A DNA stretch of 64,000 bases. It comes from a virus. Its lineage: Duplodnaviria; Heunggongvirae; Uroviricota; Caudoviricetes. Both the position numbers and the translations under genes were made by a program. Location of the stretch: the IMG/VR virus record IMGVR_UViG_3300035494_000066. One strand, written 5' to 3'. Positions within the stretch are counted from its first letter, which is position 1; the number at the start of each line of letters is the position of its first letter. The notes under the pieces are model-generated. The model ran no database searches, was not told the origin of the DNA, and saw only the letters and a program-made list of their open reading frames with translations. Below are positions 1,676 to 58,634 of the stretch, one piece after another.

Positions 1676-1885
1676 CTAAGCTATACCTAGTGCTAAACTT
1701 ATTACTTTTAGCATGATTACAGCAACAGTGCCTAGTAACCCGAGCAAACCAGCAGCAACAATCGGTCCAAATACAGCCGATACTATGCGAACTATAATGT
1801 GATCGCCTCTGGTAATACTGTAGAACCACGCGCCTGATGTGACCCAAAATACTACTACAAGCTGAGCAATTGTTTGCTCGCTCAT
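1676..1885 (-). CDS. small membrane protein
   Basis: Two hydrophobic stretches; ATGA overlap with the upstream gene. Confidence 0.65.
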   Translation of the reverse strand: MSEQTIAQLVVVFWVTSGAWFYSITRGDHIIVRIVSAVFGPIVAAGLLGLLGTVAVIMLKVISLALGIA

Positions 1886-2472
1886 TGTTTATTACCTGTA
1901 AACAGTTGTGCCATAGCTTCGATCCGATCTGCTAGCTCGTCTTTCCACTGCGGCGTCCAGCACGTATAGACTTTGTAGTGAGAATCTGCAAACGCAACGC
2001 CGTGGCGAGCTGCATCGTGTACGTAGCATTTTTTAAGATGCTCAGACTCAAATGCATCATACATCTGCGTAAATTCTTCTGGGGTAATATCTAATACGTT
2101 GACTTCATACGTTGTTCCGTGCTGAGCGGCCATCATTCGCTCAGTGTCAGTTAGGCACCGATCGGTGAAATTGTCGTCAAACCTCCATGCAAACACAATA
2201 CGAGGCTCGCCGTTAACACTAACAAACTCCATATCGCCGTCGTCGTACAGCGCATGGTGGAGTTCATTAATTAACGACTCAAACCCTACTGCAGACGAAA
2301 GGAGTCCTGCACGGCCCGGAACATACGCATACGGGTTAGAAGTTGTTTCTAGCATCCACTTAACAAGTGCAACCATACTGAAGTCATACGAGTCTGGGGA
2401 TATCGACAATGTGTCGCGGATGTGCTGCATTGTAGCATCATGGGTCTTATTGAATTCGTCGAGTTTCTTCAT
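1882..2472 (-). CDS. hypothetical protein
   Basis: ~196-aa ORF; ATG coupled to the stop of a short upstream ORF (TGATG). Confidence 0.7.
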   Translation of the reverse strand: MKKLDEFNKTHDATMQHIRDTLSISPDSYDFSMVALVKWMLETTSNPYAYVPGRAGLLSSAVGFESLINELHHALYDDGDMEFVSVNGEPRIVFAWRFDDNFTDRCLTDTERMMAAQHGTTYEVNVLDITPEEFTQMYDAFESEHLKKCYVHDAARHGVAFADSHYKVYTCWTPQWKDELADRIEAMAQLFTGNKQ

Positions 2473-2534
2473 CACAGTCGACCTGACATCGAACCAGTCT
2501 TAGTAATAATGTATTTCTTAGCCTGCTTTGCCAT
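2472..2534 (-). CDS. 20-aa ORF MAKQAKKYIITKTGSMSGRL (leader peptide or gene remnant)
   Basis: SD AGAGGA upstream, first ORF after an early promoter, TGATG coupling to the next gene. Confidence 0.5.
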   Translation of the reverse strand: MAKQAKKYIITKTGSMSGRL

Positions 2535-2568
2535 GATCACTTCCTCTGTTTGCTTACCTTATGTATGT

Positions 2569-2598
2569 ATTGTATAGTCGCTTACATGCCAGTGTCAA
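2569..2598 (-). promoter_or_regulatory. sigma70-type early promoter TTGACA-18-TACAAT
   Basis: Direct reading. Confidence 0.65.
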
Positions 2599-2601
2599 CA
2601 G

Positions 2602-2856
2602 TTATTTTGAAATGATTTTATTGATGTTGTGTGGGTAAACCCAAAAGCAAAAGTTACCGGCGATGTTTACTGCACGGTATCGGAAGTCACCTTCTTTGCG
2701 AGTACGCAATGTCTTGTCAAGGAAGTATGTAACATTAGATCCGTCTACAGTACGAATAGCACCAACACCGTCGTACTCAGTATAACGAAAAATAACACCA
2801 TTGATTAGATAGTTCTTATTGTGGCTAAAATCGCTTTCGAGTACTACATGACGCAT
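2602..2856 (-). CDS. hypothetical protein
   Basis: 84 aa, SD GAGGA, own promoter. Confidence 0.7.
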   Translation of the reverse strand: MRHVVLESDFSHNKNYLINGVIFRYTEYDGVGAIRTVDGSNVTYFLDKTLRTRKEGDFRYRAVNIAGNFCFWVYPHNINKIISK

Positions 2857-2889
2857 CGTGTTATCCTCATTGCTTTACGTTATGAATGT

Positions 2890-2918
2890 AGTATAAGGTC
2901 GCAAGTAGCCCGTGTCAA
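2890..2918 (-). promoter_or_regulatory. sigma70-type early promoter TTGACA-17-TATACT
   Basis: Direct reading. Confidence 0.8.
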
Positions 2919-2938
2919 CACCTGCATGCAGAATTTGC

Positions 2939-3172
2939 TTAAACAGTGCAAACTACTCGATTGCTATGAAATGTTACAGAGTGGCAGAAATCAACAAGAC
3001 GCGATAGCTGATCGATATCTATGCCTACGCCAACGCCGCTGTTCGTGAACCAGAACTCGTCGTACGACTTACGTTGGACGAAGTGCTCAGTGCCTATCTC
3101 GCTGAACAGATTAACAAAAAAATCAACTGTCAGACTGTCAACTAGATCTTCGATAACAAGTTCAACGTTCAT
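2939..3172 (-). CDS. hypothetical protein (start likely MNVELV)
   Basis: ATG at 3172 with GGAG 8 nt upstream. Confidence 0.65.
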   Translation of the reverse strand: MNVELVIEDLVDSLTVDFFVNLFSEIGTEHFVQRKSYDEFWFTNSGVGVGIDIDQLSRLVDFCHSVTFHSNRVVCTV

Positions 3173-3201
3173 AAAAATTACTCCGTAATCACTAAACACA
3201 A

Positions 3202-3231
3202 ATTATACAAACAAATACACCAGCATGTCGA
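3202..3231 (-). promoter_or_regulatory. sigma70-type early promoter TCGACA-18-TATAAT
   Basis: Direct reading. Confidence 0.6.
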
Positions 3232-3234
3232 CAA

Positions 3235-3525
3235 CTATTCGCTAGATTCAGGCTTAATAAATGCAGACATAACTTTCCTTATTACAGAAGGTCTAGTGAC
3301 GTTTGTGCGCCTGCCTGCTTTAGTGTGCACAAACGTCACTGTAGCAATGATAGCCATCGACAAATAAAACAACGGATATACTAACACCACAATGGTTTTG
3401 GTTAGCCATGTTACCCTGTCGTAGTTGTCAATCAACCATGGTGCTAGTACTACAGTTAGCATTAGCTGTAAAAGTGCATACCCCAAGAGGCCCGGGCCGT
3501 ATATGCTAAAAAAGTCAATCATCAT
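3235..3525 (-). CDS. small membrane protein
   Basis: Two predicted TM segments; overlaps the upstream stop. Confidence 0.65.
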   Translation of the reverse strand: MMIDFFSIYGPGLLGYALLQLMLTVVLAPWLIDNYDRVTWLTKTIVVLVYPLFYLSMAIIATVTFVHTKAGRRTNVTRPSVIRKVMSAFIKPESSE

Positions 3526-3937
3526 CGGCCTGCTGCACTAGTTTCCGATACATTAGTTCAAACATCAGACAAACATAAATTTGTGTCATGATATTCGGTA
3601 CATCTTCTAAGATAGCCTCGATGTGCTCTGTCTCGAGATCCATGATCTTCTTGTATTCGATCGGCTGATCGCCGAATTTGCCTCGAGTACCCCATTTCAG
3701 ATACTGTCGTGCAACCATATGATCACTTGTCCAAACAGACCGCTGCTTTAATACAGCACCCGCAACTCGCTGATACGAGAGGCCGCCGTCGACCATATAG
3801 AAGTTACCATCTACTGCGTCAGTGTGAGTTGCGCAATGATGACGATGCGTTGATTCTAGTACAGTACCGTCAGGAGTTTCAATCGCATTGCGAACAAGAA
3901 ATTCAGCCGGGTAAACAAACTTGTAGTCATTAGTCAT
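3515..3937 (-). CDS. conserved phage hypothetical protein (NAI.TPDG..LES.HRH...VDGG..Y type)
   Basis: Motif pattern typical of a recurrent phage protein family; ATGA overlap. Confidence 0.7.
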   Translation of the reverse strand: MTNDYKFVYPAEFLVRNAIETPDGTVLESTHRHHCATHTDAVDGNFYMVDGGLSYQRVAGAVLKQRSVWTSDHMVARQYLKWGTRGKFGDQPIEYKKIMDLETEHIEAILEDVPNIMTQIYVCLMFELMYRKLVQQADDD

Positions 3938-4245
3938 GAACTTAGTTTCCTGTATGTTTCAAGTTGGCTTTTAGCTTCTGCATATTCTGAGTTGCGAGCA
4001 ACAATATGCTTATCGGTTGTGTTATAGCTTAGCGAAGCATCGCCTTTGCTGTCGTACTTTAGAAAAATTTCATCACCTTCTTCGAATCGCCGCAGAATTC
4101 GCTTAAGTGATCCCTGGGTTTCTGCTATAACCCGGCGGCCGAAAAAATCTTCGTGCGTGTTATAGTAATCTTTGATTTCAGTTAGCAGCTGGATTTCGTC
4201 ACGCAAACAGCTCGCAAAGTAATCAACAAGTTTCTCACTCATCAT
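3934..4245 (-). CDS. hypothetical protein (start likely MMSEKL, not the ORF-track start)
   Basis: GGAG before ATGATG at 4245/4242; overlaps the upstream stop. Confidence 0.65.
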   Translation of the reverse strand: MMSEKLVDYFASCLRDEIQLLTEIKDYYNTHEDFFGRRVIAETQGSLKRILRRFEEGDEIFLKYDSKGDASLSYNTTDKHIVARNSEYAEAKSQLETYRKLSS

Positions 4246-4423
4246 CAACTCCGTCGATTTGTGCCGACAGCTTCTGAAAGATACTAACTGCTGCAGCACG
4301 GGTTTCTTTGTCAAACATTTTACTATTAATGTCATCAGATTGCAACTCAGTTGCATAGAGAAGAATTGCTTCTACTTCAGATCGACTTAGTTTAATTGTA
4401 GCTTCTTGGCGATGCGCTAGCAT
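4235..4423 (-). CDS. hypothetical protein
   Basis: AAGGAG 5 nt before ATG 4423. Confidence 0.65.
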   Translation of the reverse strand: MLAHRQEATIKLSRSEVEAILLYATELQSDDINSKMFDKETRAAAVSIFQKLSAQIDGVDDE

Positions 4424-4437
4424 AGCGGCTCCTTTAA

Positions 4438-4836
4438 TTAACTGCATACACAGTCAGCAGTCCAAAATACGTTCTTAATTCCATAGTGTTCGATAGCTCT
4501 TACACAGCCCGGACAAGGTTTTGCTAAGCCTGTAATCCACTTCTTCGAGCTCTTGTCCGGACGTTTCACGCGAACAACATACAAGTCAGACTTAGACAGT
4601 TGCTTAGACGTTAGTACACGACTAGCTCGAGTTAGTGCGTCAACTTCAGCATGCAAGTGCAATGCTTCGTCGTTTTTACCGAATTTCATCATGATCGGGT
4701 GTGTCTTGTACGAGTTAACACCAATTGATACAATTCGGTTTTTGTAAACTACTGCAGCAGCAAGCTTATACCGGTTTCTAATCCCGGGATTGTTTACTGC
4801 TATCTCTTGCAACTGTTCAAGTATCTTCTCTTTCAT
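4438..4836 (-). CDS. cytidine/deoxycytidylate deaminase-family protein
   Basis: Zn-binding HAE...PCPGC motifs. Confidence 0.85.
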   Translation of the reverse strand: MKEKILEQLQEIAVNNPGIRNRYKLAAAVVYKNRIVSIGVNSYKTHPIMMKFGKNDEALHLHAEVDALTRASRVLTSKQLSKSDLYVVRVKRPDKSSKKWITGLAKPCPGCVRAIEHYGIKNVFWTADCVCS

Positions 4837-21623: not shown

Positions 21624-22712
21624 TTATACTTTACAGTTGTCGCAGTCGTCATCGTCGTCAATTGTATCTGTTGGTAAGTCGGGCTGATCTACTACTTTTA
21701 CTTCGCCCTGGCCGTCGAATGTGTTATTATAGTATAGCTGCTTGCCGCCGAACTTATAGAACATAACAACATGTTTTAACAGCTCGCTCATTGGAATTTT
21801 TTCGTCTTCGTAGTGCTCGGGGTTATAACTAGTATTCACGCTTATACCCTGGTCGACGTGCTTCTGTAACACTGCGCAGATTTTCAAATACCCTTCTGGG
21901 CTTTTTTGATCCCATAGTAGATCGTACTTGTTCTTAAGCTTTCTGTATTCGGGAACAACTTGTCGCAGCTGTCCGTCTTTGCTTGCTTTAACAGACACGA
22001 AGCTTCTAGGTGGCTCTATGCCGTTTGTACTGTTGCTAATCTGACTAGACGTCTCACTCGGCATAAGTGCCATCAGCGTCGAATTTCGGATTCCGTGCTC
22101 TTTTAAGTCTGAGCGCAAAGCAGGCCATGGCATCCGTTCCACATGCGGAACAAGCTCGTCAACATCTTTCTTGTACGTCATGTTGGGTGTCACGCCTAGA
22201 CTATATTTTGTTTGATTAGATAGCGGACATGCGCCTTTTTCCTTTGCAAGATCGTTACTAGCTTTAATTAGATAGTAACTCCATGCTTCAGCCCATTCGT
22301 CGATCAAAGCAAGACCTTCCGGAGTAATGTCCTGGTAGTTCAAGCCGTTCTTAGCTAGCCAGTATGCAAAGTTAATAATCCCAGCGCCTAGCGGACGGCG
22401 ATTCATAGTAGCATGTTTTGCTGCTAGCACAGGGTACTCTTGGTAATCTAGTAGTTCATCTAGCGCCCGTACAATCAAGTCTGCTAATCGCTCAAAGTCG
22501 TGTTTAGACTTAACTACGCCCCAGTTAGTAGCAGCTAACGTACATAACGCAATCTCCCCGTCGGGGTCATGTAGATCGTTTAACGGCTTAGTAGGAAGGT
22601 CGATCTCTGCACAATTATGCACTAGCACATCATTTGCATAAAAGTTGTGATTGCCTGCCACCGTAATGTCGTATACTTCTTCTTTGTCTTTTAATTTTGT
22701 AATTCTTAGCAT
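21624..22712 (-). CDS. nrdA: NrdA C-terminal fragment preceded by a 33-aa split-intein C-half
   Basis: Start ATG 22712 with SD GAGGA; MLRI...VYDITV...NFYANDVLVHN/CAEI then NrdA (LCTL, MPSETSSQISNSTNGIEP, DQGISVN, KQLYY, CDNCKV). Confidence 0.95.
   Translation of the reverse strand: MLRITKLKDKEEVYDITVAGNHNFYANDVLVHNCAEIDLPTKPLNDLHDPDGEIALCTLAATNWGVVKSKHDFERLADLIVRALDELLDYQEYPVLAAKHATMNRRPLGAGIINFAYWLAKNGLNYQDITPEGLALIDEWAEAWSYYLIKASNDLAKEKGACPLSNQTKYSLGVTPNMTYKKDVDELVPHVERMPWPALRSDLKEHGIRNSTLMALMPSETSSQISNSTNGIEPPRSFVSVKASKDGQLRQVVPEYRKLKNKYDLLWDQKSPEGYLKICAVLQKHVDQGISVNTSYNPEHYEDEKIPMSELLKHVVMFYKFGGKQLYYNNTFDGQGEVKVVDQPDLPTDTIDDDDDCDNCKV
22614..22712 (-). mobile_element. split intein IntC of NrdA (33 aa)
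   Basis: Block F VYDI, block G HN followed by extein Cys+1. Confidence 0.93.
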
Positions 22713-23692
22713 AGTTTTCCTCTTACCCACCCCTCTGGGATAGGTTCGTTTTTTGGCCACGTCTTGTTCGTGACTCCGTTGTTAATTGTGCACTTATTCT
22801 GTTGTGCTTCTGCTAGTTTTTTTCTGTGTTCGGTGCTTCTGTAGTAAGGATTATATTTTACCTCAAATCCAACTTTTTTACTTGCATATATAACAAACTC
22901 ATCAATGCAACCAAATCGGTTTTTTATTATCGTACTAGCGTTTATTTTTTTCTTAAATTTGCTCATGACGTATTCTTTCAAAGCAGTATTAAACGGCTTA
23001 AACAAAAACATACCGCCTTCGACACAAACATCCATATTGTCTTTAAAAAAATCTAATAGGAATTCTTGTGTTGCAAATTCTTTATAGTTGTTATTCGATT
23101 TACCGAAAGACGGCTTCCTATTTTTTAACTCAGATTCTGATGCCTTTCGACCTGCTGTTATGTGCACCCATTCGCCTGATTTTACCTTAGGGTGATTAAC
23201 CGACACTACCCCTATAGATTTTCCAGTGCTTGCGTCCTTAGCTGGCATTGTTCCTTTTCTTGCATTCGATATAGACTTACGGCCTTCTGCTGTTTGCCAA
23301 CCATGTATATGTCTAAATTCGCTGCTATTTTGCCGGATCCATTTATAGCCATTGAGTATCGGTTTTGTTAACCTCAATTTAGTTACTTTGTCTATGTGCT
23401 GTCTATTCTTAAGTCCGTTTAACACATAACGAACAGCTAACATATCACAACGGGTTCCAAACGCTTTATACCTTAATTTATGCACAAAAACATGCTCTTC
23501 CGGAAGTAACATAACCAAATTTTCTGGTGTGTCTTCGCCGCCTAACGATTTAGGGACAATGTGGTGCATTTCAGTATATAGTTTTGTTTTGCTAAGCCTA
23601 AGGTCATTTGAATTTCTTAGTTTAATACGATCTATAGGTTTTGTCGACTTGCAATAATCAATGAATGTTTTGTGTAATTTTATATAATCCAT
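22706..23692 (-). CDS. free-standing HNH homing endonuclease (MobE-like N-terminal HNH)
   Basis: EMHHIVPKSLGGEDTPENLVMLLPEEHVFVH; sits between the nrdA halves. Confidence 0.9.
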   Translation of the reverse strand: MDYIKLHKTFIDYCKSTKPIDRIKLRNSNDLRLSKTKLYTEMHHIVPKSLGGEDTPENLVMLLPEEHVFVHKLRYKAFGTRCDMLAVRYVLNGLKNRQHIDKVTKLRLTKPILNGYKWIRQNSSEFRHIHGWQTAEGRKSISNARKGTMPAKDASTGKSIGVVSVNHPKVKSGEWVHITAGRKASESELKNRKPSFGKSNNNYKEFATQEFLLDFFKDNMDVCVEGGMFLFKPFNTALKEYVMSKFKKKINASTIIKNRFGCIDEFVIYASKKVGFEVKYNPYYRSTEHRKKLAEAQQNKCTINNGVTNKTWPKNEPIPEGWVRGKLC

Positions 23693-23701
23693 AGTAAGTT
23701 A

Positions 23702-23739
23702 ATCTCTGTACACAGTTATTTATCGTTGTGTACAGAGAT
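23702..23739 (-). promoter_or_regulatory. 13-bp perfect hairpin with late promoter ATAAATA in its loop, just upstream of the HNH start
   Basis: ATCTCTGTACACA-acgataaataac-TGTGTACAGAGAT. Confidence 0.8.
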
Positions 23740-23747
23740 ACAACTAC

Positions 23748-25382
23748 TTAAGCGATTTTCAAAACATCATCTTCGCGCAAGTCTTTAGCGCACACATACC
23801 CGCGGTTTTCAGTGTATACCTTGTGATCCGGTGTACACACCAAACGTTTGCCTGTGTCTTCGTCGACGATTTCGAGCAGTTCTGCAGACGGTGATGTTTT
23901 TGCAAATGCTTCGATTTCTTTGTACTCGTCCGCTCCGGTGTCAGTGTTATAAGACTTAACTAATACAGTTTCGTGTTTTACCATCAACGCGGCTAAGTCT
24001 TCAATAGCAACAGTATACTCATTGCCATCCACTTTAACATCAATGTTTGTATCAGCAGTAACACACAAATTCGACTGGCGGATCGGAGCAACTGATTCAA
24101 TAAATGCACCATGTGTGTTTGCGTGATCAACATTTTGCAAATAAATCCGGCCAGTGTCCTTGCGTTCGGTTAAGTATGCTTGGAATAAGTCAATAGCTTT
24201 TACTGTTTTTTTCCGGATATCCGGATTCTTTTCAGCTGCTTCGTAGATCTCTTTAAATTTAGCCTGATCTGCAAAAAACGCATCATACAGCCCCGGGATA
24301 TCTGACGGGCTGAACAGTGTGATGTTCCCACCTGTTAACAAGCGCTCATACATTAGCTTATTAAACTGAACACCGTAATCAAGTTTGCGGACTCGGTTAT
24401 CTTCTGTTCCTTTGTTGTTCTTTAGTACAATCAAGTCTTCAGCTTCTAAGTGCCAAATCGGAAAATACAACGTAGCAGCGCCGCCGCGTACACCGCCTTG
24501 AGAGCAACTCTTTACTGCAGTCTGGAAGTGCTTGTAAAACGGAATTACCCCGGTGTGATACGCATCACCCTTCCGAATCGGACTTCCTATTGCCCGGATA
24601 GCACCGGCACCGATGCCAATACCTGCTTTCTGACTAACGTATTTTACGATCGCAGCCGACGTTGCGTTAATAGAATCCAGACTGTCTGCAGTTTCAATTA
24701 GTACACACGAGCTAAACTGACGTTGCGGAGTACGAGCACCTGCCATGATCGGAGTTGGCATGCTAATCTCAAAATTCGACATTGCGTCATAAAAATCTTT
24801 TACATACTTCAGTCGTGTTTCAGCTGGGTACTTTGAGAAGAGCGTAGCTGCAATTAGAATGTATGCGACTTGCGGAGTTTCGAAGATTTCACCGGAAGCG
24901 CGATTCTGTACCAAGTACTTCCCGCGGAATTGCTCCATTGCAACATACGTTAGGTTTTCATCGCGATCGTGTTTGATAAACTTCTCAATTTGATCCCACT
25001 CTGCTTCAGTATAATCGCTTAGCAGACTACTGTCGTACCAGCCGGCAGCAACGTTCTTTTTAACAATGTCAAAAATATGAGGCGGTGTAAAAGATCGATA
25101 AATGCTTTTGCGCAAATGATAATTAATCAAGCGTCCAGCTGGGTATTGATAATTAGGAGTATCTTCCGAAATTAAGTCAGCTGCAGACTTAATTAATGTT
25201 TCCTGGATTTCAGCACTTGTTATTCCGTCATAAAACTGGATATGACTTTTAATTTCGATTTCACTAGGACTTACACCCGTGATGCCCTCACATGCATATA
25301 TTACAACCCGGTGAATCTTTTCTAGGTTTAAGTCTTCCCGCGACTTACTGCGTTTTACAATTTGAATTTGCTTCGGTGTCAT
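23748..25382 (-). CDS. nrdA: NrdA N-terminal fragment (ATP cone) ending in a 105-aa split-intein N-half
   Basis: ATP cone, PTPIMAG, QFSSCVLI, SQKAGIG, CSQGGVRGGA, RQSNL/CVTADT...CTPDH...; start 25382 has SD GAGG. Confidence 0.95.
   Translation of the reverse strand: MTPKQIQIVKRSKSREDLNLEKIHRVVIYACEGITGVSPSEIEIKSHIQFYDGITSAEIQETLIKSAADLISEDTPNYQYPAGRLINYHLRKSIYRSFTPPHIFDIVKKNVAAGWYDSSLLSDYTEAEWDQIEKFIKHDRDENLTYVAMEQFRGKYLVQNRASGEIFETPQVAYILIAATLFSKYPAETRLKYVKDFYDAMSNFEISMPTPIMAGARTPQRQFSSCVLIETADSLDSINATSAAIVKYVSQKAGIGIGAGAIRAIGSPIRKGDAYHTGVIPFYKHFQTAVKSCSQGGVRGGAATLYFPIWHLEAEDLIVLKNNKGTEDNRVRKLDYGVQFNKLMYERLLTGGNITLFSPSDIPGLYDAFFADQAKFKEIYEAAEKNPDIRKKTVKAIDLFQAYLTERKDTGRIYLQNVDHANTHGAFIESVAPIRQSNLCVTADTNIDVKVDGNEYTVAIEDLAALMVKHETVLVKSYNTDTGADEYKEIEAFAKTSPSAELLEIVDEDTGKRLVCTPDHKVYTENRGYVCAKDLREDDVLKIA
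23751..24065 (-). mobile_element. split intein IntN of NrdA (105 aa)
   Basis: Cys1, block B CTPDH, NRGYV.A.DL tail, then stop. Confidence 0.93.
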
Positions 25383-25406
25383 TGATTTCCTCAAAAAAAC
25401 TAAAAA

Positions 25407-53138: not shown

Positions 53139-54983
53139 TTAAACAGCGCCTTTGTCTATTAGCGTTATAACCCAATCGTCGCCGTAAACATATCCCATGA
53201 TTTCATCCACTAGCGAGTCGCGATCGTTTTTCATCGAGTCAATAATATCATCGTCAATACCAACACGTCGAGCGTAACCTGCTAATGCAGTCTGATTCCA
53301 ATCCTTAATACGAGTGTACATTTCCTCCGGAGATAAATCTTCATCTGACTCTGTAACAGAATTATCAACTTGAGATTTTACTCGTCTTGCAATATCAGGC
53401 ATATGCTCCTCTAGCCACGACAGTATGACCGGGCGTGCGTCAGCATCGGGTGTTGCTTTACTAGCTGCGTATAACGCGTCAGATAGCCCGTCTGCGCTTA
53501 GTACAGAAGCAATAGTACCAATGGCACTGTCTCCATCAACTCCTAGCGAGATCGGCTCGTTGAATAGTTCAAATAGCTCACCGACATTATTTGAATTAGG
53601 TTTTTTCCACACTTGCTCAGACAATCGGTTAGCCCATCGTTCGAATGATTTCGATTCTGCGAGTTCTGCAGTACGGACTTCGGTCTTATATGTTTGATCT
53701 TCTTTAATTTTAGTAAGATCAGACAGGTAGTGTTTAGCAATACGGCTTGCTAGCAACATCTCCGGGTCGCTCAAGCGATCAAACTTCTCAACGATACTTT
53801 TTGCAAATGTACGCAACGTTTGGTTAATAGATCTGCTCGATATATCTTCCATGATATTCCTCATCAGTGATGCACCGTCACTGAATCGAGACTGCATTAT
53901 AATCATATCTGCAGCAGGGTCTTCTTTAAGCAACAACGAAAAACTGGCTTGTTCGAAAATAGATGCCGCTTCGCTTAGTTTATTCATTTTATCGTCCTCT
54001 AATTCATTGAATGTCTGTGCTACAAGAGGTAGCGCATCATCGATATCGTCGCTAACAACTGATTTCACTAGCTTGCGGCGTATTTTGTCAATGTCAGAAT
54101 CTGGTACACTAGTACCGTCAGATTCCGGAATGTCTGTTGTCTCGATATACGCAGCATAACCGCGCGGAGATTGCAGCCTAGCTAATGTCTTATTAATACT
54201 CGAGTATTTCTTTATTGCACCTTCTACAATATCCTGAGCGTCTGCCTCAGCAAACTGCTTATTACGTGTTTTACGGATGAACTTGCTTAGCTTTTGCTTA
54301 TCGTCGACTAATTTAGTAATATGAGCACCTACAATGTCTACAGTAGAGCCGCCACTCGATACATGCCGGGCCATGGCGCGGGCGCCTGCTAAGTTATTAA
54401 ACGGTAACTTAAATCTCTCGCCTTCTCGTGTTTCTATATACACTGTACTGATCCGACGTGCTCGACTGCCGCGCTTTTCTTCGTCAATTGCAGTACTGTG
54501 ACGAATTATCAACCGGCACTCGCCAACTTTCTGATAGCTACTTTTTTTGCTACCGTACATCTTACTTTCGGTAATTGATGTAGATTCGTTTGCCGACACT
54601 ACGTCGGAATCGCCTGTTGCTAAGAATTTAAAATCATCTTTACTGAGTACTTTTTTAGAAATATCCCGAACTTCAAATCCTAGCATCCGACGCGAGCTAA
54701 ACTTTCGCAGCGATCGCAAAAAGTCAAACCAAATCGGCTTGTCTTCGTCAGTTAGCTCACTTGTAATGCTACGGCCATATATAACATTTAACGTATCTTT
54801 ATCAAGCAAACTAAGAGTGACATTCCCATATACACGATCGTCTACCTTAAAATCAAAGTTAAAAAATCGTGCCTGCGCTGGGTCTGTTACTACTTTAGCT
54901 GCTTCATCGCCTAACACAACCCCGGGAAACTTTCCGCGGATCTTATTAAACAACTCTTCTGCTGTATTTTCAATTTCTCTCAT
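53139..54983 (-). CDS. large conserved late protein next to terL; candidate internal head protein
   Basis: ITES, LSEA, LAES, VTES linkers; TAAATA 5 nt before the ATG. Confidence 0.65.
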   Translation of the reverse strand: MREIENTAEELFNKIRGKFPGVVLGDEAAKVVTDPAQARFFNFDFKVDDRVYGNVTLSLLDKDTLNVIYGRSITSELTDEDKPIWFDFLRSLRKFSSRRMLGFEVRDISKKVLSKDDFKFLATGDSDVVSANESTSITESKMYGSKKSSYQKVGECRLIIRHSTAIDEEKRGSRARRISTVYIETREGERFKLPFNNLAGARAMARHVSSGGSTVDIVGAHITKLVDDKQKLSKFIRKTRNKQFAEADAQDIVEGAIKKYSSINKTLARLQSPRGYAAYIETTDIPESDGTSVPDSDIDKIRRKLVKSVVSDDIDDALPLVAQTFNELEDDKMNKLSEAASIFEQASFSLLLKEDPAADMIIMQSRFSDGASLMRNIMEDISSRSINQTLRTFAKSIVEKFDRLSDPEMLLASRIAKHYLSDLTKIKEDQTYKTEVRTAELAESKSFERWANRLSEQVWKKPNSNNVGELFELFNEPISLGVDGDSAIGTIASVLSADGLSDALYAASKATPDADARPVILSWLEEHMPDIARRVKSQVDNSVTESDEDLSPEEMYTRIKDWNQTALAGYARRVGIDDDIIDSMKNDRDSLVDEIMGYVYGDDWVITLIDKGAV

Positions 54984-54999
54984 GCGTGTATTTACCTAG

Positions 55000-56073
55000 T
55001 CAAATCATTATAAACGGCATCGGTTCTACATAATCGTCGTCTAGGCCGTCTGCCAGAACTGTGTCAAACTCAGGGTCAAAACGCTTTAATTCTAAACACA
55101 TTCTAACAACCAAAATAGTAGACATTACCAAATCGTCCTTCTCGCCTGGTTTAGCTGCGTACGAACTTCCTACAGCAACAAAGTTTTTAATCTCGGATAT
55201 CAACATCTTAGAGTTTAAATTCATGATATCATTTTCAACCCAGGTTTTAAGTTTGCTGCATGCGTTTAACTTCGTTTTGTTAGTAGTATTGAACCCTCGA
55301 CGAAACCGGCGGCCGGATCCGGGTTTCTTTGTTTCGCTTAAGAAAATGCCCGGGATATTTTCTTCTCCGATTTCTTCGATTGTAATGAGAGCAGCTTCGC
55401 CTAATGTGTTATTCTCAACACTGTACCAAATATTAGTCGGCTCGCCTGTGATATCTAAAATGTAACGGTTGATTCCTGCTAAGATACTAATTTGTTTCGG
55501 TATAGGAGTCCGGTTGTTACACCATTCTGCTACCTGAATCATCGTCGGTAACTCGTACACTTGAATTGCAGCATTGTCGCCGCCGGTTCCTAAACTAGGG
55601 TCTAAGCCCACTGCATACGTGCGACCTTTTTCTGGTTTTTTAAACCACCGGACTTGACCAGTTCTAAACACTGGTTCTACTGCTTCTAGAGCTGCTATTT
55701 TAGTAGGCGATATAAGGGTTTCGTCAAAGATGATCGGCTCGCAGTTCGAAACTAAAACACCATTGGCATAAAATCTATGATCTTTGCCCGCATTAACGAT
55801 ATCGTATACTTTCCCTTTGCCTAGTTCAACAATGTTTAATAGTGCTACAGGGCCCAGACTAGACTGAACTATATCACCCAATTTTAAATCCTGCGCAGGA
55901 ACTTTGGCTAAATTGTTTACGTAAATCTCGTGATCGTGCGTGCACTCGACCCATAAGTTGTACTCAAACTCTAACCGTAACCCAGTCTGGCTTCCTTTCT
56001 CTACTATACCATCAAACGATTCATAACCAGCAGCCGTTAAAATCTTATATCCTTTTGTATTTTTCTTAAACAT
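55000..56073 (-). CDS. terL: terminase large subunit C-terminal (nuclease) fragment preceded by a 110-aa split-intein C-half
   Basis: ...CTHDH...VYDIVN...FYANGVLVSN/CEPIIFDETL; RNase H-like GLDPSLG, ENN, DDLVM. Confidence 0.92.
   Translation of the reverse strand: MFKKNTKGYKILTAAGYESFDGIVEKGSQTGLRLEFEYNLWVECTHDHEIYVNNLAKVPAQDLKLGDIVQSSLGPVALLNIVELGKGKVYDIVNAGKDHRFYANGVLVSNCEPIIFDETLISPTKIAALEAVEPVFRTGQVRWFKKPEKGRTYAVGLDPSLGTGGDNAAIQVYELPTMIQVAEWCNNRTPIPKQISILAGINRYILDITGEPTNIWYSVENNTLGEAALITIEEIGEENIPGIFLSETKKPGSGRRFRRGFNTTNKTKLNACSKLKTWVENDIMNLNSKMLISEIKNFVAVGSSYAAKPGEKDDLVMSTILVVRMCLELKRFDPEFDTVLADGLDDDYVEPMPFIMI
55744..56073 (-). mobile_element. atypical split intein IntC of TerL (110 aa)
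   Basis: Contains block B TxxH, block F and terminal Asn before Cys+1; penultimate Ser. Confidence 0.9.
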
Positions 56074-57083
56074 TATTAATATCTCTTAAAATTTCTAAAG
56101 TCTTGTCATCTTTAAATAACCAGACTTCGTATTCATAGCCTGCATCTAAAACAGCTTGCCATTTACGAAGATTGTTTGTTAATCTGTTTTCGTACCCAGG
56201 CCGTTGTTTGGCATCCCACCACCACTGTGCTTTAACTTCGATAATCTTATTTTTATGCGGGATATAGATGTCTGGGTAATACTTTGCTCGGCGACTGTTT
56301 GCTTCTTTATTAATATAGTCAAACACCGGAATGTTATATTCAGATATTCTATCATCAACTACTAACTCAGTCTCTGCATACCCTTGCTCTAACAACATAG
56401 CAATGACTTTATCTTCATAGCCTCGCACATGCACAATATCACCCGAAGGCAATACAAATTCGCGACCTATCGAATTTGACTTTGCTGACTTTGCCCTGAC
56501 TTCCGGCTTCATTAATGCATTCTCTACGCCAAATTTTTCCATACATGTTTCGCGACGCTTATCTACAATTGCACCAATCTCATCTGTAGTCTTATTCTGC
56601 CAGGTTGCTGATGTTTTTCCTGGATTAGAATAATTACTATGACCGTATTTTTTTTAATTTAGTTGCCGATGCCTCTGCTTTAAACTCTTCGGTTTGTGTA
56701 GCAAGCATACCGTACTTTGCAATCTGTGTTGCTTTCGACTTTGCTACTTGCTCTGCAACTTCTTCCTTTGTTCGACTGTATGCAGCTTTCTTCTTATTAA
56801 TCAAGTCCTGCAACACTTGCTCTTCTGTCCAAGACTGCTTCGTTACTGATACATTCTTACCAACACACTTCGGACTACCGCACGACTTAGCATACGATTC
56901 ATCTTTTTGATAGAATGTTAACGGCTTTGTACATGCACAGACAGGCGTTACGCCAGTTATATATGTTTCATAATAATCTTTATACGTTAAACCATGAGTA
57001 CGCAAATGACGTGTAAATTGGCCATTCTTTCTACAATATTGCTTATTATCTATCTTTGATATTACATAAAATTTAGTATTCAT
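56066..57083 (-). pseudogene. Zn-finger + KYG-repeat + PD-(D/E)xK putative homing endonuclease broken by one extra A in an A8 run (56648-56655)
   Basis: Removing one A gives ...TKLKKYGHSNYSNPGK...ETCMEKFGVEN...YYPDIYIP...IIEVK, 338 aa. Confidence 0.75.
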
Positions 57084-57107
57084 TTCTATACGTCTCGTTG
57101 AAATCGC

Positions 57108-57113
57108 TATTTA
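57108..57113 (-). promoter_or_regulatory. late promoter core TAAATA between terL-N and the endonuclease
   Basis: Lies in the 36-nt spacer. Confidence 0.65.
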
Positions 57114-57119
57114 CTAAAA

Positions 57120-58040
57120 TCATTTATCCATCAAATTATACAACTCGCCGATTGTGATTGTTATTTCGTTATTAAATTCGTCTAAGATCGTTACATTATT
57201 GTCGGTGTACAAACAATCCATCTCGCGACGGAATCGCTCGTCGCCGATTCGGCTGCGCTCTTCGTTTGCCCACTGCTCGTCTCGCTCTGGATGCTCGTAC
57301 CATAACGCCTTATACGCTTTAAATCCATTCTGTCCGACTTCTGTTTCGTTACCAAACTCGTCGAATGTCTTATTTGCACCCAGCCACAGCTCCCAGAACT
57401 GATCCTCGTCTGAGTTTGGTGTGCTAGTTATTATAGCTTTACCGCCTGTAGCAAGTGTAGGCGATATGGACGTCCAAAATTCTTTAGCAATAGTGTTTCG
57501 TACGAACGCAAATTCGTCAGTGTATAGTAACGAAATAGACATCCCGCGGCCGGTGTTTTCTGTTGTGGCTTGTGCTACAATTCGGCTTCCGTTATCAAAC
57601 TCAATACTGCCTTTGTTGTAACTTACTACACCGGCACGTATATGATCAGGGCATGACTCGTACGCGTATCGGATACGCTGCATGATCTCTTGCGCACCCG
57701 AATACTTGTGCGCTGCAATTAAGATAGTGCTATCCGGAATAAACATAGCATACCACAGTAAGTAACCTGCAGCAGTTGTAGTCTTGCCGAGCTGTCGCGA
57801 CAGCAAGTTGATACTAAACCGGTACTTGTGATAGTTGTCTACTAGTCCGCGTTGGTAGCCATACGGCTCGTAGAGCATCTTACCTCTAGTAGGGTGTTGT
57901 ATGTAGAAGTAATTTTCCAGAAAATACGAAGGGCCAAAACATTCATCAGCGCACCTTGCAAATTCTAACATCTGCTCCCGGGAGAATTCTTGCGGCTTGT
58001 GGGCTCGTTTGATTAAGACGCCATCTAATGATTTTGACAT
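57120..58040 (-). CDS. terL: terminase large subunit N-terminal (ATPase) fragment ending in a 31-aa split-intein N-half
   Basis: YQ, SRQLGKTT Walker A, LLYTDEFAF Walker B, TSTPN, FRREMD/CLYTDNN...IGELYNLMDK stop. Confidence 0.93.
   Translation of the reverse strand: MSKSLDGVLIKRAHKPQEFSREQMLEFARCADECFGPSYFLENYFYIQHPTRGKMLYEPYGYQRGLVDNYHKYRFSINLLSRQLGKTTTAAGYLLWYAMFIPDSTILIAAHKYSGAQEIMQRIRYAYESCPDHIRAGVVSYNKGSIEFDNGSRIVAQATTENTGRGMSISLLYTDEFAFVRNTIAKEFWTSISPTLATGGKAIITSTPNSDEDQFWELWLGANKTFDEFGNETEVGQNGFKAYKALWYEHPERDEQWANEERSRIGDERFRREMDCLYTDNNVTILDEFNNEITITIGELYNLMDK
57123..57215 (-). mobile_element. atypical short IntN of TerL (31 aa)
   Basis: Cys1...V.I......I.IGELY block-A pattern, then stop. 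Confidence 0.85.
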
Positions 58041-58049
58041 CGATTCCTC

Positions 58050-58077
58050 TTGACTTATTTTTTATAGATGATATAAT
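58050..58077 (+). promoter_or_regulatory. sigma70 promoter TTGACT-16-TATAAT (extended TG) for the HNH gene; overlaps the divergent terL late promoter TAAATA at 58080-58085
   Basis: Direct reading. Confidence 0.65.
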
Positions 58078-58112
58078 TCTATTTATCGTGTAACTTTAAA
58101 GAACTTAATACT

Positions 58113-58634
58113 ATGTCGCATACACTCATCTTAAACGCAGACTACCAGCCTATTAGCTTGATTCCGCTAAGTGTCATTGACTGGCAACAGGCGATAAAAT
58201 TGCAGTGGCTCGGAAAGCTTCATGTACTACACACATACGAAGATTGGATAGTACATAGTCCTACTACTTCGTTCCATGTCCCGGCGGTATGTGTTACATC
58301 GAAGTACTACAAAGTTCCTCTAGACGCAAACTTCTCGCGATCCAATCTATACATACGTGATGCATTTGTTTGCCAGTATTGCAACGAGCAGTACAGCACA
58401 TCCGAGCTTTCGATTGATCACGTAATCCCGCAGTCGCTCGGCGGTGGTACGTCATGGGAGAATTGTGTAACTAGTTGCAAACCGTGCAACCACGGTAAAG
58501 GAAGCAAACTCATCAAGCCAATTCGCCAGCCGTATGCACCATCATACTGGGATCTTGCAAGAAAGTCAGTTGGTCGGCATGTCAAAATTAAACACGATAG
58601 CTGGCGGCAATATTTAAAACCTGTACTGTCATAA
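58113..58634 (+). CDS. HNH endonuclease family protein (CxxC...DH.IP...GG...WEN...C..CN)
   Basis: LILNADY.P, RD...CQYC, SIDHVIPQSLGG.TSWENCVTSCKPCN..K. Confidence 0.9.
   Translation: MSHTLILNADYQPISLIPLSVIDWQQAIKLQWLGKLHVLHTYEDWIVHSPTTSFHVPAVCVTSKYYKVPLDANFSRSNLYIRDAFVCQYCNEQYSTSELSIDHVIPQSLGGGTSWENCVTSCKPCNHGKGSKLIKPIRQPYAPSYWDLARKSVGRHVKIKHDSWRQYLKPVLS

Follow-up and report, generated by a model that had tools for sequence, protein, structure and literature searches.

A terminase gene of an uncultured jumbo phage probably fractured by an atypically split intein and a now-frameshifted endonuclease gene

How does a phage obtain one terminase large subunit (TerL) from a gene that is divided into two separately translated halves? 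The question is raised by IMG/VR virus record IMGVR_UViG_3300035494_000066, a 302.5-kb viral contig of an uncultured jumbo phage. The 64,000-nucleotide (nt) stretch of this contig that was analyzed is called the window. The minus strand of the window encodes TerL as two open reading frames (ORFs), an ATPase half at 57120-58040 (306 amino acids (aa), P0001) and a nuclease half at 55000-56073 (357 aa, P0002), and Pfam and PHROGs assign the two ORFs to the N and C halves of TerL. The first half ends in the N-terminal fragment of an intein (IntN) and the second begins with the C-terminal fragment (IntC). The arrangement is very probably a fractured gene, in which a mobile insert carries IntN, a free-standing and now frameshifted endonuclease gene of the DUF7487 family, and IntC, and the two halves of TerL would be joined by protein trans-splicing. 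The components of the locus are as follows.

57216..58040 (-): TerL N-extein with the ATPase domain, P0001 residues 1-275, ending ...GDERFRREMD (Terminase_6N, 4.1e-18; phrog_36964, 5e-68)
57120..57215 (-): IntN, 31 aa, CLYTDNNVTILDEFNNEITITIGELYNLMDK (coding 57123-57215), with its TGA stop at 57120-57122; aligns with the IntN of another contig (L005) and with block A of relatives that are contiguous
57084..57119 (-): 36-nt spacer from the IntN stop to the endonuclease start; each of the three frames contains a stop
56637..57083 (-): endonuclease 5' part (P0004, 148 aa), a Cys-rich putative zinc finger and KYG-type repeats; aligns to an intact homologue (P0167)
56648..56655 (-): A8 homopolymer in which a +1-nt frameshift disrupts the endonuclease gene
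56066..56653 (-): endonuclease 3' part in the +1 frame, 195 aa open (called as ORF P0003, 56066-56542), DUF7487 with a PD-(D/E)xK fold
55744..56073 (-): IntC, 110 aa, MFKKNTKGYKILT ... GVLVSN (PDB 6DSL CatC, E = 1.4e-12)
55000..55743 (-): TerL C-extein with the nuclease domain, P0002 residues 111-357 from CEPIIFDETL, plus the stop (phrog_36964, 1e-43)
57135..57164 (-): weak sigma-70-like promoter match (ATAACA-18-TATAAT, 10/12) that lies in the part encoding IntN and precedes the endonuclease gene

The P0001 C terminus reads ...GDERFRREMD/CLYTDNNVTILDEFNNEITITIGELYNLMDK and then stops (a slash marks an intein boundary). P0002 begins MFKKNTKGYKILT, contains the motifs CTHDH and VYDIV, and reads ...ANGVLVSN/CEPIIFDETL across residues 103-120. 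A sequence-only reading of this DNA had proposed that the ATPase half ends in FRREMD followed by IntN, and the ORF at 57120-58040 (-) confirms this with an IntN of 31 aa. The 110-aa IntC with CTHDH, VYDIV, and a terminal SN/C that it had described is present in full in the ORF at 55000-56073 (-), and its division of TerL into ATPase and nuclease halves agrees with the Pfam and PHROGs calls and with the alignments of intein-free TerLs.

In alignments with intein-free TerLs, that of phage PA5oct among them, the match to P0001 runs to the junction and the match to P0002 starts at residue 110/111; the phrog_36964 match to the nuclease half begins at residue 109 of P0002. The TerL of this phage is closest to those of the jumbo phages PA5oct (58% identity in the N-extein), Atu_ph07, and the Rak2-like group; in a megablast search with the locus, no close relative turned up among the phages in GenBank. 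The relatives compared at the DNA level were the 80 nearest IMG/VR loci, which are 68-78% identical to the window in the TerL ATPase domain that forms the N-extein. TerL is uninterrupted in 78 of these 80, with no base between the match that ends at N-extein residue 275 and the match that starts at the first C-extein residue, Cys111. The intein-free alleles read FRRE(M/H)(D/E)-CE(F/P)I at the junction, and the Cys+1 nucleophile is therefore a native TerL residue. Locus L009 encodes RFRREMD-CEPIIFDETL, which is identical to the junction of the predicted spliced product. The Pro at +3 replaces a Phe that is near-invariant in the IntC family, yet it is an ordinary variant in the TerL clade of the window. 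The insertion point lies between the ATPase and nuclease domains, before Cys-Glu. Judged from these alignments, removal of the insert restores exactly the junction of the intein-free relatives.

The insert between the exteins is 1472 bp long (55744-57215), and its G+C content (0.31 for IntN, 0.37 for the homing endonuclease gene, and 0.39 for IntC) is lower than that of the exteins (0.47 and 0.42). All three reading frames are closed downstream of IntN. The IntC ATG at 56073 is the earliest start in its own frame and overlaps the endonuclease stop by 8 nt. Promoter- and terminator-like sites in the region do not exceed the count expected from shuffled sequence, and no significant hairpin of the kind published for some fractured genes was detected in the endonuclease 5' untranslated region formed by the spacer (z = 0.60).

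Relatives of IntC were surveyed by an exhaustive phmmer search, which returned 742 cluster representatives at E ≤ 1e-3, 112 of them with E ≤ 1e-10, compared with one relative from a word-index protein search; 145 of the top cluster representatives were classified. IntC residues 1-112 match chain B of PDB 6DSL ('Consensus engineered intein CatC') with E = 1.4e-12 and about one-third of the residues identical, and IntC matches VidaL (PDB 6VGV) with E = 0.008. Cat is the GOS-TerL/AceL-TerL consensus, and the CatC match bears out a resemblance to these inteins that the sequence-only reading had pointed out. The class 1 catalytic set is complete and consists of Cys1 (C276 of P0001) and T45, H48, D91, N110, and C111 of P0002. 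Cys1, the block B His48, Asn110, and C111 (Cys+1) are invariant in the family alignment, and the block F Asp91 is near-invariant. IntC stands at the protein N terminus, the mark of an atypical split, in 74 of the 145 cluster representatives and is internal in the other 71, which are mostly contiguous mini-inteins with block A located 25-40 residues upstream. Contiguous relatives at the same TerL site place the split of the window in the loop after block A, the position proposed earlier; an example is P0014, which reads QEFN/CLNKNTTLQLLDENNQPIDMMIGDLYQFN-GFSKNT...SSN/CEFVTD, where CLNKNTTLQLLDENNQPIDMMIGDLYQFN opens CLNKNTT and ends GDLYQFN. The TerL insertion site, the natural split, its position after block A, the IntC homology, and the class 1 catalytic set together place the TerL intein in the AceL-TerL/GOS-TerL/Cat family of atypically split class 1 inteins.

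The complex of IntC with IntN plus 10 extein residues was predicted with a score of 0.66, and the best of three controls scored 0.01. Of 80 solved complexes, 58 attain this mark, as do 2 of 110 mismatched pairs; the counts apply only roughly to a prediction made from custom alignments. Three runs agreed in at least 88% of the contacts with a partner pLDDT (predicted local distance difference test) of at least 68. The predicted IntN contacts involve IntC residues 3-12 and blocks B (42-49), F (87-92), and G (101-111). Docking of IntN onto IntC to complete the HINT fold is thus found in silico; the like complex 6DSL is already solved, and the result therefore shows likeness to that complex, which the pass may reflect, rather than binding by this copy.

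In the proposed mechanism, the short IntN would dock after translation onto a partly folded IntC to complete the HINT fold. Cys1 would form a thioester that is attacked by Cys+1, Asn110 would cyclize, and an S-to-N shift would yield a 522-aa TerL containing ...RFRREMD-CEPIIFDETL.... The endonuclease may formerly have driven the spread of the cassette through cleavage of intein-free TerL alleles in co-infected cells and would be decaying in this copy. TerL is essential, and the split intein would therefore have to be kept.

The same three-gene layout with an IntN of 30-35 aa occurs in at least eight independent contigs from different samples (L005, L030, L082, and L087-L091). L005 has a 31-aa IntN (CLYSNNLLTLQTQSGEIITKTIGELYNELSS and stop) that is 57% identical to the window over the extein tail plus IntN, an IntC-nuclease half that is 50% identical over the searched IntC region (residues 1-115), and an HNH+NUMOD3 endonuclease. 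Of the 80 nearest relatives, only L030 and L082 contain an intein; both have HNH endonucleases, and their IntN fragments are 35 and 30 aa long, respectively. L087-L091, one of which is from a 329-kb contig, have intact DUF7487 endonucleases. The P0018 contig (354.5 kb, ENA ERZ25072076) encodes a 302-aa ATPase half on the opposite strand from its IntC-nuclease half, with a 715-aa gene between them, and no shared transcript is therefore possible. Conservation of the split state argues that the split intein works. Sporadic presence among close relatives and different endonucleases at one site are expected of a homing element with endonuclease turnover.

Two ORFs, P0004 (56637-57083) and P0003 (56066-56542), lie between the TerL halves and constitute a single frameshifted endonuclease gene, a detail missed by the sequence-only reading. 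Upstream, the P0003 frame remains open up to the A8 run and joins the frame of P0004 there. The first 145 residues of P0004 match residues 1-146 of P0167, an intact homologue of 338 aa (53% identity, E = 2e-48), and residues 2-191 of the downstream 195-aa read align to P0167 residues 146-332 (60% identity, E = 1e-82). The two parts align to consecutive segments of the intact protein, and therefore one extra A breaks the gene. The window reads ACT AAA TTA AAA AAA A TAC GGT at this site, and the intact L087 homologue encodes T K L N R Y G. The homologues comprise about 100 cluster representatives, most of which are 333-342 aa long, and intact DUF7487 copies of 333-338 aa are located at the same position in other metagenomic contigs.

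The C-terminal domain of the endonuclease is Pfam DUF7487 (PF24308, 107.8 bits against a gathering cut-off of 27), a family to which Pfam assigns no function. P0004 alone matched no Pfam or PHROG family, and a literature search in a limited paper library found no mention of DUF7487. Residues E80, D128, E139, and K141 are invariant in the domain, and its AF2 model has a pLDDT of 89.8. A Foldseek comparison of the model with the PDB gave no match at E ≤ 0.001, and the sequence had no match among PDB chains. A second structural comparison gave Z-scores of 6.7-8.6 to proteins of the PD-(D/E)xK fold. Matches to the model include Vsr (1CW0; Z 8.1, root mean square deviation (rmsd) 2.9, 97 aligned), TnsA (Z 8.0), I-Bth0305I (3R3P; Z 6.7, rmsd 3.8, 83 aligned), and Hjc (Z about 6). 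The endonuclease shares the restriction-endonuclease-like fold with I-Bth0305I and Vsr but has the E, D, E, and K of a classical PD-ExK site in place of the His-based Vsr-like site. With no PDB sequence match and no His general base among its invariant residues, it does not fall within the Vsr-like/EDxHD homing endonucleases. More distant members of DUF7487 are encoded by separate genes located among other genes of their phages, one of them behind gp23 of Vibrio phage Va1 and others in further contigs, which is the usual setting of a free-standing homing endonuclease gene. The subgroup found at the TerL junction is 45-62% identical to the window copy in the compared C-terminal 195-aa part. The chances are evenly balanced that the following holds as a whole: DUF7487 is a PD-(D/E)xK homing-endonuclease family, one of its subgroups specializes in the junction between the ATPase and nuclease domains of TerL and there spreads, and perhaps gave rise to, the atypical split, and the window copy is decaying.

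Fractured genes are expected to hold an intact endonuclease gene, and the gene in the window has the +1 frameshift in its A8 run, which may be a sequencing error. If the endonuclease is broken, the element is probably no longer mobile. A tentative alternative to decay, and a somewhat doubtful one, is that the break is a homopolymer sequencing error or a site of programmed slippage that throttles endonuclease synthesis. An A8 run is a classic place for both errors and slippage, and the two parts of the gene are otherwise as well conserved as their 53% and 60% identities to P0167 indicate and have no other stops; however, the intact L087 homologue has no A-run there (AAA CTT AAT CGA), which does not support a conserved slippery site.

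Three points weigh against a fractured gene joined by trans-splicing. The record is a metagenome-assembled contig that is about 85% complete as estimated by CheckV, the endonuclease gene is broken, and IntN alone, being too short, has no significant match among PDB sequences. In a rival reading, the two TerL halves would form a non-covalent heterodimer held by intein pieces that are catalytically dead or serve as a dimerization tag, and fragmented phage enzymes that assemble without splicing are known, such as the Aeromonas phage NrdA (PMC3045599). The penultimate IntC residue in the window is Ser rather than His, which could be taken in favor of a dead intein. However, conservation extends to every nucleophile and to the residues of blocks B, F, and G, and the penultimate residue among the 145 relatives is His in 81, Ser in 43, Lys in 13, and Ala in 4, with many of the Ser cases at the same TerL site. 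The sequence-only reading correctly noted that Ser replaces His, but these counts make the residue an ordinary state of the family as sampled and not a peculiarity, and a heterodimer without splicing is very improbable. That the split is an assembly mis-join, or that a group I intron containing the endonuclease is spliced from the mRNA to give a contiguous intein, is hardly credible even for a contig that stems from a metagenome: an Rfam scan of 54800-58300 found no family of introns or other RNAs at E ≤ 1, the 36 nt upstream of the endonuclease ORF and the overlap of its stop with the IntC ATG leave no space for an intron core, the layout recurs in the at least eight independent contigs, and 74 cluster representatives begin directly with IntC.

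AceL-TerL, GOS-TerL, and Cat were reportedly described by Thiel in 2014, Bachmann and Mootz in 2015, and Stevens in 2018. Cat is a consensus designed from the atypically split inteins GOS-TerL and AceL-TerL, with an IntN of 25-37 aa and an IntC of about 104 aa according to a review (PMC11766414). The TerL intein of the window is like them in its host gene, the length of its fragments (an IntN of 31 aa and an IntC of 110 aa), and a Cys+1 followed by Glu. It differs in its penultimate Ser, its diverged sequence, its PA5oct/Atu_ph07-like jumbo phage host, and in being known from sequence alone. VidaL has a homologous IntC-type HINT domain and the same short-IntN topology but is far more distant in sequence. 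The 'fractured genes' of Dassa 2009 consist of the N-terminal host half with IntN, a 27-51-nt spacer, a free-standing endonuclease gene, and IntC with the C-terminal host half (PMC2677866). The window has this order on one strand, and its 36-nt spacer is within that range; the difference is the endonuclease, which is a frameshifted DUF7487 protein with a canonical E...PD...ExK site and not of the GIY-YIG or Vsr-like type. The gp17-like terminase locus from Lake Gatun was the one intein of that study broken at a different, unusual point (PMC2677866).

A cultured T4-like phage, Providencia phage PSTRCR_127 (L003, MW358927), likewise encodes ATPase+IntN (...QEH/CIGPNSKV...), an endonuclease, and IntC+nuclease (...THN/CAEFQG) at 1681-4589. 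Its endonuclease is SegE-like GIY-YIG with NUMOD3, and its IntC+nuclease protein is 28% identical to that of the window. The annotation calls the ATPase+IntN and endonuclease products hypothetical proteins and the IntC+nuclease product the terminase large subunit, and names no intein. Earlier work has described the class, its host gene, and the layout of the genes seen at the window locus; elements of this kind have been on record since 2009-2014 and occur commonly in metagenomes of phages.

Other arrangements were observed in related proteins. Gene 224 of Salicola phage SCTP-2 (L002, MF360958; 2492-4576), annotated as the terminase large subunit, starts with an IntC of the same family that is located at a different TerL site, before CDEFAFVRKN in the Walker B region, and ends in Gln (...GGNVSQ/C). 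The same gene contains a second, contiguous intein (PTIS/CLAPG...GILGSN/TGGK), and the upstream gene 225 is endonuclease-like. The ATPase match in Agrobacterium phage Atu_ph07 (MF403008) is in two pieces at 80301-81715 and takes up 1415 bp although it covers 276 residues; the annotation has two features called 'terminase large subunit', and TerL is interrupted within the ATPase domain by about 590 bp. In four proteins of 575-764 aa (P0051, P0056, P0090, and P0102), IntC is preceded in frame by sequence that resembles an endonuclease of the NUMOD, GIY-YIG, or zinc-finger type; these are either real endonuclease-IntC fusions or gene-calling read-through.

The sequence-only reading had also claimed a second split intein of different topology in this genome, and a canonically split intein is indeed present in NrdA (window 21624-25394 (-)). 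Its IntN of roughly 105 aa follows ...RQSNL/C and its short IntC ends VHN/CAEI. The N half ends ...APIRQSNL/CVTADTNIDV...DVLKIA and stop, the C half reads ...VYDITVAGNHNFYANDVLVHN/CAEIDLPT, and a 328-aa ORF lies between them. A hidden Markov model (HMM) built from the IntC family detected a third split intein outside the window (G000:C1:199931-202778 (+)), in PolB at the YGD/TDS motif. The N half ends ...VIYGD/SVTGDSMIYLSDG...LLITVSGIN and stop, where SVTGDSMIYLSDG opens SVTGDSMIY, the C half reads ...YFFANGILVHN/TDSCYF, and a 322-aa ORF is located between them. The PolB intein uses Ser1 and Thr+1, is canonically split, and, like Aes123 PolB1, is a cysteine-less split intein. On the IntC-family HMM, the NrdA and PolB inteins break between positions about 70 and 75 and the TerL intein breaks before position 1. 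The TerL intein and the NrdA and PolB inteins are thus cut at different places of the HINT fold, mixed pairs would therefore lack or duplicate blocks, and the orthogonality of the split inteins of this genome that the sequence-only reading had put forward as a requirement is plausible.

A 173-aa HNH protein (CQYC...DHVIPQSLGG...CKPCNHGKG) is encoded divergently from TerL at window 58113-58634 (+). A homologue is located at the equivalent position in L082 (3903-4439), and the protein resembles a conserved HNH associated with the terminase more than it does a homing element.

The locus leaves current understanding unchanged. The appeal of atypically split inteins is that a peptide of only some 30 residues is open to chemical synthesis and can then be ligated to a recombinant protein, and the locus adds a natural Cys1/Cys+1 pair whose IntN has 31 aa and whose penultimate residue is Ser. 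The two canonically split inteins of the same genome provide a ready-made set for orthogonality tests. For phage biology, the split TerL would be another case of an essential packaging enzyme that needs assembly after translation, and a single homing site shows both endonuclease turnover, DUF7487 versus HNH, and probable endonuclease decay. If the DUF7487 reading is true, the window captures the homing cycle at a point where the endonuclease is dying and the split intein is locked in by an essential host gene.

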